This document shows, piece after piece, positions 6,816 to 33,607 of a DNA stretch of 55,714 bases. Each line of letters opens with the position of its first letter. Within the stretch, counting starts at the first letter, position 1. Origin of the DNA: Candidatus Kaiserbacteria bacterium (GTDB lineage Bacteria > Patescibacteriota > Minisyncoccia > Phycocordibacterales > UBA2100); the NCBI GenBank assembly GCA_016217965.1, contig JACRFI010000015.1, positions 82,366-138,079 on the forward strand, written 5' to 3'. The translations under genes and the position numbers were made by a program. The notes below the pieces were generated by a model. It was not told where the DNA came from, did no database searches, and saw nothing but the letters and a program-made list of their open reading frames with translations.

Positions 6816-7211
6816 TCATTCGCTCGTAACGCCATCAAAATGCTCCCCATCTTTTTCTGCGTCCGCCTTTGTCTCGTGCACGGTGCCGTCTTTATGGTTC
6901 GGCGGCGCATAGACGGTATACAGGTCGAGTGATTCGTGTTTCGAAGTGTTGATAATGTTGTGCTTGGTGCCGGAAGGAATTGTGACAGCGGAACCTTCGC
7001 CAAGCATGTGTTCGACGCCATCTAGAACCGCTTTGCCTTCCCCATCCTCGATGCGGATGAATTGGTCCAGGTCGTGCATCTCCGTGCCGATGTCCTCGCC
7101 GGGGGGAATACTCATGACAACTAGTTGCAAGTTGCGAGCGGTGTATAGTACCTTGCGAAAATTCTCATTATCTTCCGTCGCCTCTTCGATGTTCGTAACA
7201 AATCCTTTCAT
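6816..7211 (-). CDS. Cupin-domain protein
   Basis: IGTEMH.LDQFIRIEDGEG and IPSGTKHNIIN motifs; YAPPNH. Confidence 0.88.
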   Translation of the reverse strand: MKGFVTNIEEATEDNENFRKVLYTARNLQLVVMSIPPGEDIGTEMHDLDQFIRIEDGEGKAVLDGVEHMLGEGSAVTIPSGTKHNIINTSKHESLDLYTVYAPPNHKDGTVHETKADAEKDGEHFDGVTSE

Positions 7212-7216
7212 ATTTT

Positions 7217-28343: not shown

Positions 28344-28458
28344 GTGTGAACAATATCATGGGAACGCTAAGTGGAGTCATAGGGCGTACCGCCGCAATAC
28401 CAGTGCCTTATACGAGGAGTGGATTTTGCGTGCCGAGAAAAAACACTTTCTCTCTAAT

Positions 28459-29454
28459 TTAGAGTCCTAATCGTATTCCTGCCCTGCTCACGATGCCGAA
28501 AGCGGTCCGATAGTCGTGACTACCCGACCAATCGGATTTCTCGCCGTGCCAGTCCTTGTTCTTCCAATCGTCGTTATCGCCTTTCCACGCATTCCCGCTA
28601 TCGCAACAACTGCCGTCCTTGCCATCTTTCCCATCCTTCCCATCTTTCCAATCGTCCCCGCTCCAGCAGCAATTATTGCTATGATCCTTGCCGTTCTTCC
28701 AGTCGTTCTGTTTTCCATCGCACCAGTTGTCGCAACCGCCATTGTCCTTCCAATCTTTGTCCTCGCACCAATCGGAACAACCATGCTGACAGTTCCAATC
28801 ACAGCCGTGATCTTTGTTGTCATACGCGTCGTCACTGCAATCCCAATCGCATCCATGTTTATCTCCATAGCCATATCCGCCATCGCCTCCGTAACCACCA
28901 TCTCCATTGTTGTCGCCATACCCATTATCGCCGCTTCCAGAGCCTGTCTCATCGAAGCTGCCAGAAAGCTGCCCACGAATCTCGCCATTCGCATAGTCCA
29001 TTGAATGCACGTTGGCATAGATGGTGCCGCTCTCTATCGCCATCATGAGTTCTGCCACCGTGTCTACCCCCGAGCAAGCGGTGATATCGCCGTCATCAAT
29101 AGTTCCTGATGCAAGCGTCCCGTTCACATTCACACCGGACGAGTTATTGAATAACGTGACTAGCGCTGGCCCGTTTACGCCAGAAGCGCCGCAGTGCAAG
29201 TGCGCCTGAGTCACATCTTCGATTCCATACACATTCAGGACGTAATCAAGATTATCGCCATTCGCTTGGAGAGAGATGTTTCCCGATGCGCTCGTCGAAA
29301 CAGACGGTACTTCGCTGCTGCCCGACAGATTCGCATTCGCGCTTCCTGTTGCCGCGCTTACAAGTGGCGCGAAGAAGAAGAATGACGCCAATCCCGCGAC
29401 AAGCGATACCGCGAGCGTGAGCGCCATGTTCCTGTAATTTGTTGAATAATCCAT
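28459..29454 (-). CDS. Secreted CHRD-domain protein with Cys/Asp/Trp/Gly-rich repetitive tail
   Basis: LSGSSEVP, AHLHCG..G.NGP, YANVHS..YANGEIRGQL. Confidence 0.88.
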   Translation of the reverse strand: MDYSTNYRNMALTLAVSLVAGLASFFFFAPLVSAATGSANANLSGSSEVPSVSTSASGNISLQANGDNLDYVLNVYGIEDVTQAHLHCGASGVNGPALVTLFNNSSGVNVNGTLASGTIDDGDITACSGVDTVAELMMAIESGTIYANVHSMDYANGEIRGQLSGSFDETGSGSGDNGYGDNNGDGGYGGDGGYGYGDKHGCDWDCSDDAYDNKDHGCDWNCQHGCSDWCEDKDWKDNGGCDNWCDGKQNDWKNGKDHSNNCCWSGDDWKDGKDGKDGKDGSCCDSGNAWKGDNDDWKNKDWHGEKSDWSGSHDYRTAFGIVSRAGIRLGL

Positions 29455-30017: not shown

Positions 30018-30380
30018 ATGCAATATGTAGAGACGTACAGGGCTGATAGTTATAGCTTCTATCCCGCGCGCATGGCAGCGCGGATCGCGGATAGCATCAT
30101 CGGAGCCATCGAATTAGCTTTGGGGCTTCGACTTCTCCTCATTCTCTTTGGTGCAAATGCAAATGCTGGATTTGTGGCGTGGCTATATGCGATTACCGAT
30201 AGCCTCATGCAACCTTTCATCGGCATCTTCCCTGCTTGGCATCTTGCAGATGCATTCATACTCGATGTATCAACACTGGTGGCGATGCTCGTGTACGCGA
30301 TTTTCGGGTGGGTAGTGATACAGCTTATATACTTCGTGCTCCCTTCACGCGATATTGTGGAAACAAGAAATATCACCTGA
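30018..30380 (+). CDS. YggT-family membrane protein
   Basis: LRLLL.LFGAN....FV.WLY.IT..L..PF.GIF pattern. Confidence 0.8.
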   Translation: MQYVETYRADSYSFYPARMAARIADSIIGAIELALGLRLLLILFGANANAGFVAWLYAITDSLMQPFIGIFPAWHLADAFILDVSTLVAMLVYAIFGWVVIQLIYFVLPSRDIVETRNIT

Positions 30381-30404
30381 ATCAACGCCTTACAACAAAT
30401 GTAT

Positions 30405-30421
30405 TGACCTCACGGGGAATC
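30405..30421 (-). pseudogene. 3' fragment of a second tRNA-Glu (GATTCCCCGTGAGGTCA)
   Basis: Matches the 3' end of the intact tRNA except two changes that are complementary to the 5' fragment at 30779-30811. Confidence 0.65.
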
Positions 30422-30468
30422 TTCTGCGACTCTCACTTCATTCGCCGCTCAGCCCGTTAGACAACTTG

Positions 30469-30540
30469 TGACCCTACGGGGAATCGAACCCCGGTTTTAA
30501 CCTTGAGAAGGTCACGTCCTAGCCGCTAGACGATAGGGCC
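30469..30540 (-). tRNA. tRNA-Glu(CTC)
   Basis: Acceptor GGCCCTA/TAGGGTC, D-arm GTCTAGCGGCTAGGAC, loop TTCTCAA, T-arm GGTTCGATTCC; CCA not encoded. Confidence 0.93.
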
Positions 30541-30778
30541 TTCCCATGTCTAACGGGCTGAAGGGCGACATCAAACAAATGCGCCAAACAACATAATCTT
30601 TCATACATTTTACTGAGTGGCAAGAGAAGATATTCCTGCCCCGCGGGAACAAACGCACCCCCCCGCTTCCCTCCTTACAGGAGCTGTACACCTTGTTGAT
30701 TTTTTGTTCACCACAAAAAGGATTCCAAAAAATCTAACAAGGTCTTGCGGTTGGGTCCCACCCCAACCTCACCTCTCG

Positions 30779-30811
30779 AAGGATGTGTCCTAGCCGCTAG
30801 ACGATGAGGCC
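30779..30811 (-). pseudogene. 5' half of a second tRNA-Glu-like gene (GGCCTCATCGTCTAGCGGCTAGGACACATCCTT)
   Basis: D-arm identical to the intact tRNA; similarity ends at the anticodon loop. Confidence 0.7.
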
Positions 30812-30889
30812 GTCACCGCGAGTATAGAATATCCTTGGTTCGATTCCAAGCAGAAATATCTTCCAGAAAATTGGCAACTTAGTTTTTTG

Positions 30890-31213
30890 CTACGCCTCAA
30901 AATCCGGTTTCTTGAACCAAAGAGGGTCAAGTCTCCTTAATCTTGCTTTGATCCTTGGACCACCTGCTCTTTTGATGCAAACAATCATTGCATCCGCCGT
31001 CAAAGATTGGAATAGATATGTGTCTCTCTTGAATTCGAAAGTTGGATTTTTATCCAACCCAAGTTTTTCAACTATCTTATTTCGCTCTTCTACGATAGCC
31101 GCTTTGAGCAGCGACTTCTCAAGACTTCGCGACATCACCCTCTCCGTCTTCCCTGCCGCGTCCGTTCCCTTTTTACGAGGTTTCTCTGGTGGTTTTGGTT
31201 TCCATTCGCTCAT
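30890..31213 (-). CDS. Basic hypothetical protein
   Basis: 107-aa ATG ORF. Confidence 0.55.
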   Translation of the reverse strand: MSEWKPKPPEKPRKKGTDAAGKTERVMSRSLEKSLLKAAIVEERNKIVEKLGLDKNPTFEFKRDTYLFQSLTADAMIVCIKRAGGPRIKARLRRLDPLWFKKPDFEA

Positions 31214-31244
31214 GCAAAAAATATATGATTACGACGACATATTC

Positions 31245-31706
31245 TTATTCTTCTTTCACGCGTGAAGCGTCAGCAAGTGCCTGCATTTCCTCAAGAACTC
31301 GCTTCGACTCGATAGGGTTTAATGTTGGAAACAGCGCCATACGTGCAGATAACGCAATGAGGTGTGGCGGCGCTGCCTCGCCAAGCGGTGCAAGTGAATC
31401 CCGAAGTGCCGCTCCAAATTTTGGTACATCTTGTGTTTTTCCATACGGCGCTTGCAGCTGCCCGATAATGCGAGCTCCAACATATTTGGTGAGTACGTCT
31501 CTCATCTTTGCTACTTTCGCACTATCCATATGAGCCAAGATCCCTTCTATATCGGTGCGGGACATGCGCTGAGTGTTATCGGTCCGGGCAACAACATGGA
31601 GCGCGCTTACGACGTCGCTATGAAATTGTATCTGAAAACGATTCTGGCTTTTATCACCCCCCTGCTCACTCCCATCGAAACCCTCTGCTCTTTCTAGTGT
31701 ATCCAT
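31245..31706 (-). CDS. Hypothetical protein
   Basis: 153-aa ATG ORF. Confidence 0.55.
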   Translation of the reverse strand: MDTLERAEGFDGSEQGGDKSQNRFQIQFHSDVVSALHVVARTDNTQRMSRTDIEGILAHMDSAKVAKMRDVLTKYVGARIIGQLQAPYGKTQDVPKFGAALRDSLAPLGEAAPPHLIALSARMALFPTLNPIESKRVLEEMQALADASRVKEE

Positions 31707-31906
31707 GCGTCCATTGTACCTTAAACACCAGATTAGATTCCAGTTTGTCGATTACTTCTCTTTATATTTGTCTACAGCACCAGGTCTCACTGTTATTGTC
31801 CCGGAATGAAATCTCACGATCAACAGACCCTTCGCATTATCAAAAACCACGATTCGTCCGAGTCCACGCATTTTTCTCGGCGGCGACTCCTCTTCGCCTG
31901 TAAATG

Positions 31907-32083
31907 TTATACGTCATTCAATTTGAATTCCGCATCTTCCAATTTTTGTTTGGCTTCCTTCCGCGCCTTTTGTACTCCTTCTGTTGCCCTTCCGGCGCTC
32001 TCACCAGCACTTTTGGCTAATGCCTTAGCCCTTCTTCCTTCCGACCCGAGATTGCCGCCGTGATATTTCTCAGATTTTGCCAC
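31907..32083 (-). CDS. 58-aa charged helical hypothetical protein
   Basis: GTG-start ORF (MAKSEKYHGG...), below the ORF-track cutoff. Confidence 0.35.
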   Translation of the reverse strand: MAKSEKYHGGNLGSEGRRAKALAKSAGESAGRATEGVQKARKEAKQKLEDAEFKLNDV

Positions 32084-32146
32084 GCCTATATTCTACTATA
32101 TTTTTGAACGCTTATTACTAACTCAAGGTCGCGACGTTTCTATCGC

Positions 32147-33607
32147 TCAACGACTGATCGAAGCGAGTCGCTGTTTTATTTTTCGGATAAAGAGTTTTGC
32201 GAGACCGCTTCCGACAGCCGGCACGTATGTACCGCCGACGAATACTTTTTCATATATATCTGAGAATATGCGGCTCGCACGGAATTTCTTGCGAAGCGCG
32301 ACGTACCATTCTGCATCATAGATGCGCCAAAATTCATCTTTCGGATAGTACGTATGAGCATATAGCACCTTTCTCCCGCCGAGTTTTTCAGTTTGCTGTT
32401 CTATTTCTCTATTGAGCGCATAAAGTGCCTCATGGCCATGTCTCGGTCTCGTCCCTCCCCACACGCCAACATTGATGATCATGTTTGCGTGAAGATACGC
32501 AGGCGATAGCCGCGCGTATTTTTCCGGCCTCAACGGACACAACCAAAGCGGATAAATGCCGATTTTCTCGCGGACAAAATCAAGAAATGCTATCGTCTTA
32601 TTTTCCGGAAGACTTATATCCTGGACGATACACTGTTGCGAAGTGTTCGTAGCATGCAGCATTTCATATAGTTGGCGTGTTTTAAGAAACGGATTAAAAA
32701 TGAATCTCGTCAGGCGATTGAAGGGTATAGACCATCGATTAAAAGCATACGAAGCCATCCAGAACCCTCCTCGATCGTATCGGAACAAATACTCTTCGAG
32801 CGGCACTGTTTCTTCGAATTCTTCGTGCTCTTTAGCTATCTTCTCTGCATGCAGATAGAACCACTGATCTCGGGCTCTTGAGAATCTCTGTATGTTCCCG
32901 CGTGCGACATCAGTTCGTTCGCCAACGATAACCACACCGCGATCAGAACTGAATATAATGCCATCTACGAAATCATTGCTTGAACGCATCTCGCGCTTCA
33001 GTACGTCGACCGCATCTCTATAACTCCCGGTGCGAATATAATGCAGCCGCACGTATAACGAGGCAGGAATTAAACGAAGCTTTATTAATGTGATAACACC
33101 TAGCGATCCATATGAGCACGCCGTTCCCCAGAATAAATCTGGATTTTCATGTCTTGATACTTTTATTATTTCACCATTGCCCAATATCATTTCGTATTCT
33201 AAGCAACATTCGTGAAATAGACCCTCCTTAAATGAACTACTCTCGCCCGCGCCACCCTGTATGCCTCCTCCTACGGTAATTCCAGGGAACTCCATGACAA
33301 CCGGCGGTATAAGCGTCCGCTTGAGCGTCTCCCTTACAAGTACATCCATCGGGACATTCGGTTCGAGAAGCGCATAAGGTCCATCTTCAGATTCTGCAAT
33401 CTCAAGAATTTTATCCAGAGAGCTCGTATCCAATGTTTTCTCTGGATCAAAAGTTTGGGAACGAGTCGAATTTGTACTGCCGTGAAAAATGCGAACTTTT
33501 ACGTCCCGATCATAAAACTTCTTTACTTTTGCACTCAGATCTAACACTTGCGCCCGATGCTGATCTACGGTGCTTTCCATCCAACAAAATCTAGCATGAT
33601 CCTCCAC
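32147..33607 (-). CDS. FAD-binding oxidoreductase, Delta(24)-sterol reductase (DHCR24/DIMINUTO)-like
   Basis: EPNVPMD, PVVMEFPGITVGG...GESSSFK.GLF, GSLGVIT, YLFRYDRG.FW, YPLWLCP, GGRKVLYA; start may be 33580. Confidence 0.8.
   Translation of the reverse strand: MEDHARFCWMESTVDQHRAQVLDLSAKVKKFYDRDVKVRIFHGSTNSTRSQTFDPEKTLDTSSLDKILEIAESEDGPYALLEPNVPMDVLVRETLKRTLIPPVVMEFPGITVGGGIQGGAGESSSFKEGLFHECCLEYEMILGNGEIIKVSRHENPDLFWGTACSYGSLGVITLIKLRLIPASLYVRLHYIRTGSYRDAVDVLKREMRSSNDFVDGIIFSSDRGVVIVGERTDVARGNIQRFSRARDQWFYLHAEKIAKEHEEFEETVPLEEYLFRYDRGGFWMASYAFNRWSIPFNRLTRFIFNPFLKTRQLYEMLHATNTSQQCIVQDISLPENKTIAFLDFVREKIGIYPLWLCPLRPEKYARLSPAYLHANMIINVGVWGGTRPRHGHEALYALNREIEQQTEKLGGRKVLYAHTYYPKDEFWRIYDAEWYVALRKKFRASRIFSDIYEKVFVGGTYVPAVGSGLAKLFIRKIKQRLASISR

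Follow-up and report, generated by a model that had tools for sequence, protein, structure and literature searches.

Integrative elements use tRNA and tmRNA genes as targets and are bounded by the partial tRNA copies that they leave, and group I introns occur in the anticodon loops of bacterial tRNA genes. Here we analyze a locus in which an intact tRNA-Glu(CTC) gene and a structured insertion module lie between the two ends of a second, broken tRNA-Glu(CTC) gene. The locus belongs to a 55,714-nt stretch of a Candidatus Kaiserbacteria assembly (hereafter the window); coordinates are those of the whole window, and the region is read on the minus strand. The source genome (G000), that of a tiny groundwater bacterium, is 94.1% complete, and all other G and L labels denote other genomes and loci extracted for comparison. 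Serial invasion and replacement of a tRNA gene at the DNA level appears to be the best reading of the locus: we consider it probable that an older tRNA-Glu(CTC) gene was broken in the DNA and that the inner, intact allele is its replacement and now the working gene.

The locus resembles integration sites in having partial tRNA copies beside an intact gene and breakpoints in the anticodon loop and T-loop, but it lacks both an integrase and a hybrid tRNA, a deletion has removed the middle of the gene, and modules occupy tRNA loops, often with antisense T-arm flanks. With group I introns it shares a 100-250-nt insertion in a bacterial tRNA anticodon loop; here, however, no intron model matches, the module is 107 nt long with three simple hairpins, and the exons are incomplete.

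The nearest precedent is found in the mobile endonuclease open reading frames (mORFs) of fungal mitochondria, for which Paquin et al. 1994 is reportedly the work cited. On insertion these bring along a foreign copy of a portion of their target, as in atp6 of Allomyces macrogynus and in atp6, atp9, cox2 and nad3 of Glomus, and the native gene end stays behind as a remnant, the sequence of which still agrees with that of the sister species (PMC3630166). The window is alike in that a resident gene is interrupted, the insert brings a replacement for the displaced part and a native remnant lies beside it; in that the native piece matches a close relative (the outer pieces match G020) while the inserted copy is divergent (85%); and in that relatives carry a GIY-YIG open reading frame (ORF) at the same position (PMC3630166). 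It differs from the cases set out in that source in affecting a bacterial tRNA gene rather than an organelle protein gene, in carrying non-coding structured modules instead of an endonuclease ORF, and in holding a whole tRNA, not just an end, inside the old gene (PMC3630166).

Phages that substitute tRNA genes are the nearest bacterial parallel. In tRNA-dependent lysogeny, mycobacteriophages integrate into a tRNA gene, which is thereby destroyed, and provide a substitute tRNA of their own (PMC10865867). There, as here, an element sits in an essential tRNA gene that is not rebuilt; the phage cases described involve a tyrosine integrase and a whole prophage, whereas the insert in the window has 357 nt and neither genes nor an integrase, and the broken gene holds its replacement between its two halves (PMC10865867). 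Finally, the disrupted tRNA genes of Archaea and algae carry multiple introns or are split or permuted (PMC4033280, PMC3978253). They share with our locus an interruption at loop positions and halves with matching acceptor strands, but the genes described give rise to a complete tRNA with the help of a bulge-helix-bulge endonuclease and a ligase, whereas our locus lacks 22 nt and searches of the source genome detected neither enzyme (PMC4033280, PMC3978253).

Anatomy and allelic history of the nested locus

The outer 5′ piece (Table 1) comprises the acceptor strand GGCCTCA, the D-arm, the 5′ strand of the anticodon stem and the loop up to C34; the outer 3′ piece comprises the 3′ half of the T-loop, the 3′ strand of the T-stem, the acceptor strand TGAGGTC and the discriminator A. 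The genus set contains 46 genomes (the source genome and 45 others), and the closest of these by the neighbouring penicillin-binding protein (PBP) is G020 (72%), followed by G019 (69%). G020 carries the outer-type gene complete, and the outer 5′ part with 39 nt of upstream sequence matches it at 97% over 73 nt (blastn, E 5e-29). Relative to that gene the window keeps only nt 1-34 and 57-73; nt 35-56 (22 nt) are gone, and the breaks fall at nt 34/35, in the anticodon loop, and nt 56/57, in the T-loop. A preliminary description of this DNA, made without database searches, had recognized a tRNA 5′ half starting at 30811 and a 3′ end at 30421-30405, had read compensatory changes in their acceptor strands relative to the inner gene (GGCCTCA/TGAGGTC against GGCCCTA/TAGGGTC) and had assigned both to one distinct gene. 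Both pieces are real, the compensatory changes can be read directly from the sequence, and the gene exists complete in G020; the outer pieces are thus evidently from one real gene, beyond chance. The description also placed the break correctly at the anticodon loop but ended the piece one nucleotide early, at 30779, and what it called a middle part that is not clearly identifiable is absent when compared with the intact gene.

Table 1. Features of the nested tRNA-Glu(CTC) locus, in the order in which they are met along the minus strand
Feature	Position	Strand	Details
Inverted-repeat arm, upstream, 14 nt	30850..30863	-	Partner 30626-30639; 93% complementary; 210 nt between arms (repeat search)
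Promoter-like site TTGGAA-17-TATACT	30849-30821	-	Sole promoter-like site within 30300-30950
Outer (dead) tRNA-Glu(CTC), nt 1-34	30778..30811	-	Identical to nt 1-34 of the intact G020 gene
Structured insertion module, 107 nt, three hairpins	30671..30777	-	Model R1, 107.4 bits, E 8.6e-22; this copy belongs to the R1 seed alignment and its score is not independent
Spacer	30569..30670	-	Contains hairpin 30635-30653 and inverted-repeat arm 30626-30639
Inverted-repeat arm, upstream, 22 nt	30547..30568	-	Encloses inner tRNA; 91% complementary
Inner intact tRNA-Glu(CTC), acceptor GGCCCTA/TAGGGTC	30468..30540	-	ARAGORN; Rfam tRNA 58.5 bits, E 3.9e-10
Inverted-repeat arm, downstream, 22 nt	30442..30463	-	Overlaps start of second-type module remnant
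Truncated remnant, second module type	30422..30457	-	Resembles full copies in G020, G039:C2 and L069 by eye, unscored
Outer (dead) tRNA-Glu(CTC), nt 57-73	30405..30421	-	Identical to last 17 nt of the intact G020 gene

The inner gene proved to be what the preliminary description had taken it for, a complete tRNA-Glu(CTC) held in a 22-bp inverted repeat, the arms of which form a stem around the cloverleaf in the predicted fold. It is the sole tRNA-Glu(CTC) that ARAGORN found in the source genome, and tRNA-Glu(TTC), a possible loss of which had been raised, is intact elsewhere (C23:37898-37969). Its sequence is 95-97% identical to the plain tRNA-Glu(CTC) genes of three genomes of the genus (G019, G017 and G015) and 85% identical over 80 nt to the G020-type gene; the two strands of its acceptor stem and the two of its anticodon stem all differ from those of the outer allele. 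The outer 3′ piece, 47 nt downstream of the inner gene, matches the end of that gene at 15 of its 17 positions (88%). The suggestion of a decayed duplicate therefore holds as far as the outer gene is dead and fails as far as a local duplicate of the inner gene was meant. ARAGORN predicts 36 tRNA genes in the source genome, among them a tRNA-Ile(TAT) at C11:115834-115908, and finds no tRNA-Asn(GTT) or tRNA-Ile(GAT); these two may lie in unassembled parts or be disrupted.

Between the outer pieces lie 357 nt. No ORF of at least 60 codons is contained in 30422-30777, and a 74-aa frame on the plus strand (30236-30460) merely overlaps the 3′ edge. The module begins with GAGAGGTGAGG, followed by hairpin P1 (30746-30771), GCAAG, hairpin P2 (30690-30743), GUACAG and hairpin P3 (30671-30683); its stems I4 and I7 were recovered by the repeat search as well. 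The first 10 nt of the spacer (30661-30670, GGAAGCGGGG) may represent nt 44-53 of the outer gene, from its variable loop and T-stem, in decayed form, a reading suggested by analogy because the tRNA resumes directly after the module at two loci of relatives (L138 and L055). Among the matches listed for the 60 related genomes compared with the locus by blastn, the stretch 30552-30666 (query positions 195-309) has no homologue. The second module type normally has a long hairpin and GTGACC at its end; by eye, it occupies the T-loops of tRNA genes in G020, G039 and L069 and ends directly before GAT(T)CC, in the 3′ half of the T-loop.

The promoter-like site would initiate transcription near position +1 of the outer tRNA. 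It is overlapped by a hairpin (30834-30850) with the sequence of an antisense tRNA T-arm, within which 11 nt (30837-30847) are perfectly complementary to the T-loop region of the inner gene (30480-30490) in the repeat search. The −35 region of this tRNA-Glu promoter is thus itself an antisense copy of the T-arm of the tRNA. The same hairpin and −10 box precede the intact tRNA-Glu in G020 and L069; at the latter (7195-7215) the antisense T-arm and −35 copy stands directly 3′ of the sense T-loop half of a dead copy, producing a palindromic junction. The 14-nt inverted repeat encloses the stretch from the promoter through the outer 5′ part to the module. When the 407 nt of the locus are folded, all three hairpins of the module are predicted to form along with the stem of the inverted repeat and with an outer acceptor stem that closes around everything (z −6.25; none of 100 shuffled sequences is as stable).

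The sequence is supported by assemblies of raw data. Logan contigs from two samples match 30468-30807 (X1) and 30498-30810 (X2) with 0 mismatches, and further X1 contigs span 30100-30496 and 30785-31100 at similar depth (48.5, 35.9 and 45.5). No single Logan contig covers the whole locus, because tRNA-Glu genes of other organisms share words with it and contigs break there. Misassembly, which had been named as a possible refutation, is unlikely, since independent contigs agree without mismatch over 30468-30807.

Comparison with relatives places the outer and inner alleles in a wider pattern. A tRNA-Glu(CTC) gene, most often plain, follows the PBP gene on the same strand in 54 of 80 related loci, and the two adjoin in six of ten loci from closer relatives. 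G020 shows the reciprocal state of the window, with a dead GGCCCTA-type copy carrying three insertions ahead of a live GGCCTCA-type gene, and L069 is laid out like G020, with an insertion-riddled dead GGCCCTA-type copy, the promoter hairpin and the live gene. Judged from these sequences, the locus is a hot spot with alternating live and dead states. As for its surroundings, three ORFs lie between the PBP gene and the tRNA locus of the window (30890-33607, minus strand), one of 486 aa with a FAD_binding_4 domain and two of 153 and 107 aa without a family match; in G017 the PBP gene ends approximately 200 nt before the tRNA.

Modules and small nuclease genes in related genomes

We surveyed the module in 201 genomes sampled from the order, which comprises Kaiserbacteria-like Patescibacteria. 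Relatives were found by blastn in 78 of them and in none of the other 123, and they are assigned to Candidatus Kaiserbacteria or Paceibacterota. Compensatory changes occur in 21 of 29 predicted pairs across the three stems in an alignment of 23 copies, and Rfam gave no match for the module. The three-hairpin module is, on this distribution and covariation, a real family. Two copies in total were detected in the source genome by a scan with covariance model R1.

Many of the copies stand close to tRNA genes. At 33 loci holding 29 copies, a same-strand tRNA lies within 250 nt of 15 copies and within 400 nt of 17, and 11 copies lack any such tRNA within 1.5 kb. The copies show two recurrent arrangements: downstream of a tRNA, an intact gene is followed by a spacer, an antisense T-arm stretch, the module and an exact or decayed copy of the last 17-25 nt of the tRNA; upstream of tRNA-Glu, a 5′ fragment is followed by the module and the intact gene. 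The 5′ flanks of the modules are often antisense T-arm copies. After nt 34 of tRNA-Glu, the junction at which ...CTT(C/T) meets GAGAGGTGAGG recurs in G039 and at two loci of G190; in G177 the tRNA-Glu 5′ fragment stops in the D-loop, and in L138 and L055 the module stands in place of nt 35-43 and the tRNA resumes at about nt 44. One of the G190 loci (C12), at tRNA-Glu(TTC), is fully nested like the window, with a 5′ fragment, a module, an intact tRNA, another module and an 18-nt 3′ copy. A census of the exact junction with the pattern CTTYGAGAGGTGAGG in 401 genomes gave matches in four, including a chance match in coding DNA (G046), against two matches for the reversed control, and added just the second G190 locus. 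At these two loci (L055 and L058, on contigs C7 and C12) the dead 5′ halves before tRNA-Glu(CTC) and tRNA-Glu(TTC) are near-identical over approximately 120 nt, including a 75-nt D-loop insert, and their flanks are 65-70% alike; the lone difference in the tRNA part is nt 34 (C or T), which matches the anticodon of the local live gene.

The second copy in the source genome (C10:10394-10502) lies in a 306-nt intergenic region between two conserved genes, a region of 60 nt in G020, and no module is present at the same site in any of four relatives (G020, G019, G444 and G439). Modules thus evidently come and go. This copy (L050:1400-1700) is part of a composite of approximately 250 nt directly 3′ of a stop codon, with an 11-bp inverted repeat at its bounds, and G444 and G439 carry unrelated palindromic inserts at the site. 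The family is not confined to tRNA genes, because one copy (L044; G091:C7, around 28397-28468) follows the first ~38 nt of a gene for a glycosidase-like protein. There, a second start of the gene comes after the module and the last 17 nt before the junction are repeated exactly. Clustering 376 frames from 30 loci revealed no recurrent neighbour gene of the module, only frames that run across modules.

The niche that the module occupies in the window is taken in relatives by small nuclease genes. At the tRNA-Glu site, genes for GIY-YIG proteins of 81-85 aa lie between a dead 5′ fragment and a live tRNA. In L077 an 85-aa ORF follows a fragment reaching nt 35 and has its stop codon inside the intact tRNA; in G028 (L150) the ORF separates a dead GGCCCCA-type piece from a live GGCCTCA-type gene, and the dead fragments at these two loci extend to nt 35/36. 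The ORF also abuts tRNA-Glu in L103, where it is 5′-truncated, in G011 and G014, where just a short remnant is left, and in G003, where no fragment is evident. Small GIY-YIG ORFs occur in 40 of the 46 genomes of the genus; at 12 of 30 genus loci a same-strand tRNA begins 4-79 nt 3′ of the ORF, and six of these 12 have a clear 5′ fragment of that tRNA before it.

The source genome itself contains three small GIY-YIG ORFs. One of them (C16:38438-38680, 81 aa) belongs to an arrangement at C16:38390-38754 (L139:390-755) in which it is preceded by a tRNA-Gln 5′ fragment, made up of nt 1-10, an 18-nt hairpin and nt 11-25, and followed 4 nt past its stop by an intact tRNA-Gln(TTG); the layout recurs in G013 and G010. 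The other two lie on the same contig, at C16:15337-15540, starting 70 nt after tRNA-Trp, and at C16:17782-18006, with no nearby tRNA. In G014 (L159; C2, ~60653-60760) the tRNA-Glu(TTC) after the GIY-YIG ORF has a tandem duplication of approximately 20 nt from the D-arm to the anticodon loop and is called a 93-nt tRNA-Gln(ctg) by ARAGORN; the duplication may be a footprint or mark a broken gene.

Probable replacement and its alternatives

Under replacement, an older gene (allele GGCCTCA...TGAGGTCA) that had a promoter of its own would have been broken in two loops (nt 34/35 and 56/57) and have lost nt 35-56, so that just the outer halves are left of it. The insert would be composed of the 107-nt module, the truncated second-type module and, between them, the inner allele GGCCCTA...TAGGGTCA in its 22-bp repeat. 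The inner tRNA is probably transcribed from the old promoter within a long precursor, from which the normal tRNA-end processing enzymes would then cut it out. The insert most likely arrived by homing or gene conversion: a break in the resident tRNA gene would have been repaired from a donor locus that carried the insertion and the replacement tRNA, with the tRNA fragments acting as homology arms, and repetition of the cycle would produce nesting. Small GIY-YIG nucleases are candidate enzymes for such breaks, because they occupy the same niche in relatives and at the tRNA-Gln of the source genome; we infer both the enzyme and the mode of movement.

A bolder version of this scenario holds that a cut-and-rescue drive recurs at the tRNA genes of Kaiserbacteria-like genomes. 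Small cassettes, consisting of an 81-95-aa GIY-YIG nuclease or of a folded RNA or DNA module alone, would enter a tRNA loop, borrow the strong tRNA promoter and supply all or part of a substitute tRNA. Invasion after invasion would give rise to loci built like Russian dolls, and live and dead alleles would alternate in sister species, as between G000 and G020. We put forward this full nuclease-driven cycle as a tentative and rather doubtful extension.

Several observations weigh against replacement and against its nuclease-driven form. The post-module stretch is not significantly tRNA-like, since 115 and 184 of 500 shuffled sequences reach its scores. At the PBP-adjacent loci that were read in sequence (G017, G019 and G015) the tRNA-Glu(CTC) gene is plain and of the GGCCCTA type, that is, of the inner allele; the argument that the outer allele is the older one therefore draws on the nesting and on the state of G020. 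Different protein genes flank the tRNA in the source genome and in G020, and in G020 the PBP gene lies 7.6 kb from the tRNA on the opposite strand; the identification of the two loci as the same gene is therefore based on the tRNA and its promoter. A module was never found beside a GIY-YIG ORF, R1 yielding four matches in 88 loci and none in the 30 GIY-YIG loci, so that module and nuclease are linked through a shared target niche and layout only. The 357-nt insert holds no nuclease, integrase or other ORF, and no ORF recurs next to the modules. A live tRNA next to its own nuclease should keep the target site and would have to be immune in some way, and it is possible, given a predicted fold that closes the outer acceptor stem, that a processed RNA uses the outer ends.

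One alternative is that the modules are working small RNAs and not selfish DNA, that they use tRNA promoters and tRNA-like ends to be made and trimmed, and that the broken pieces serve as processing handles. Conservation of structure is strong, compensatory changes being seen across many families; the outer gene has kept its promoter; the predicted fold forms all stems together (z −6.25, 0/100 shuffles); and in G190 the dead 5′ half stays near-identical over ~120 nt at two loci despite diverged flanks. The distribution of the modules, however, is patchy for a core function, with two copies in the source genome and none in 123 of 201 genomes of the order, one copy is absent at the same site in all four relatives, and the contexts vary, extending to the 5′ end of a protein gene (L044). 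We regard a small-RNA function as unlikely to be the explanation of the locus.

Leftovers of integrase-driven integration, in which one or more small elements recombined at the anticodon loop and T-loop, left att-like copies and lost their genes, would account for the 17-nt 3′ copy located 47 nt after an intact gene, which is the classic pattern, and for the many relatives in which an intact tRNA is followed by a spacer, by a module and by 17-25 nt that repeat its 3′ end exactly. Furthermore, tRNA loops with symmetric flanking stems are known integrase targets. But no integrase lies in or beside the insert, and the sole tyrosine recombinase match in the source genome (PF00589, C10:55116-55598) is ~57 kb away. 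Integration at a single site predicts a hybrid tRNA, whereas the inner gene differs in both acceptor and both anticodon-stem strands; nt 35-56 are deleted, not duplicated; and simple att sites do not account for modules inside tRNA loops with 5′ flanks that are often antisense T-arm copies. On balance, an origin by integrase seems quite improbable.

Other mobilizers were considered and set aside. No reverse transcriptase (PF00078) was found in the source genome, which removes a retro-element, and an OMEGA/TnpB guide RNA was rejected with no PF07282 match in that genome and no HEARO-type match in Rfam. A transposase of the IS200/IS605 type (Y1) as mobilizer was rejected as uninformative: PF01797 occurs in 121 of the 201 genomes of the order, in 53 of the 78 with the module against 68 of the 123 without it (odds ratio ~1.7, kin not being independent), and the strong module holders G152, G110 and G134 lack it. 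Genomes of the order hold up to 14 ORFs of the IS200-type Y1 family; in the source genome, three ORFs of ~235 aa match it in part (C23:2514-2774, C4:4996-5217 and C2:89750-89965).

The preliminary description had favoured no single explanation, and had listed an intron-like or multiply interrupted tRNA beside a tRNA-targeting element carrying a replacement tRNA. The latter fits best, in view of the broken allele that the closest relative still has intact, the inner allele inside the insert, the module family and the nuclease cassettes of relatives; the former does not survive. A functional interrupted tRNA would have its outer halves joined after the removal of a long intron containing another tRNA, and the outer acceptor strands do pair perfectly, with compensatory changes relative to the inner gene, and are brought together in the predicted fold. 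Yet the last two anticodon bases, the 3′ strand of the anticodon stem, the variable loop, the 5′ strand of the T-stem and half of the T-loop are absent. The exons do not sum to a complete tRNA, and because nt 35-56 are missing the outer pieces cannot make one. A cmscan of 30250-30950 (E up to 10) detected no intron of group I or II, no ribozyme and no further Rfam family; weak matches (mascRNA, a plastid UTR, microRNAs) overlie the tRNA or are at chance level, and nothing intron-like passes the Rfam gathering score in the whole window, only the inner tRNA doing so. Neither tRNA splicing endonuclease (PF01974) nor RtcB (PF01139) has a match in the source genome, both models matching in archaea as expected in positive controls, and both tRNA-Glu isoacceptors are intact, so that the product would carry an anticodon that the inner gene already provides. 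We conclude that no tRNA is spliced from the outer halves, and we reject the functional intron, to which we would assign only a very small chance.

An assembly artefact joining tRNA-Glu genes of different organisms in the metagenome is the least credible explanation and very unlikely: Logan contigs do break in shared tRNA words, on which other organisms have tRNA-Glu genes, and none spans the locus, but one 340-nt contig runs from the inner tRNA through spacer and module into the outer 5′ part, the second sample contains the same 313 nt, flanking contig depth is similar, and the architecture recurs in independent assemblies (G190, G039 and L138).

Significance for tRNA genes in candidate-phyla bacteria

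The locus points to an undescribed route for the invasion and replacement of tRNA genes in these bacteria; in a literature search that left subscription journals outside its scope, we found no description of such modules or of nested tRNA genes in Patescibacteria. Because genomes of about one megabase carry a single copy of most tRNA genes, an element landing in one of them should be lethal, and the loci analyzed here show a way round this lethality, in which the invader comes with a replacement or is seen only beside one. If replacement is the true explanation, these loci would constitute a bacterial, tRNA-targeted counterpart to the endonuclease cassettes of fungal mitochondria and a natural example of allele replacement driven by selfish elements. 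It would also explain the many half-tRNAs that confuse tRNA annotation in candidate-phyla genomes. The module would then represent a new family of small structured elements, absent from Rfam and with a single-stranded fold under selection, and the tiny GIY-YIG proteins beside tRNA genes would be candidate nucleases with specificity for tRNA genes.

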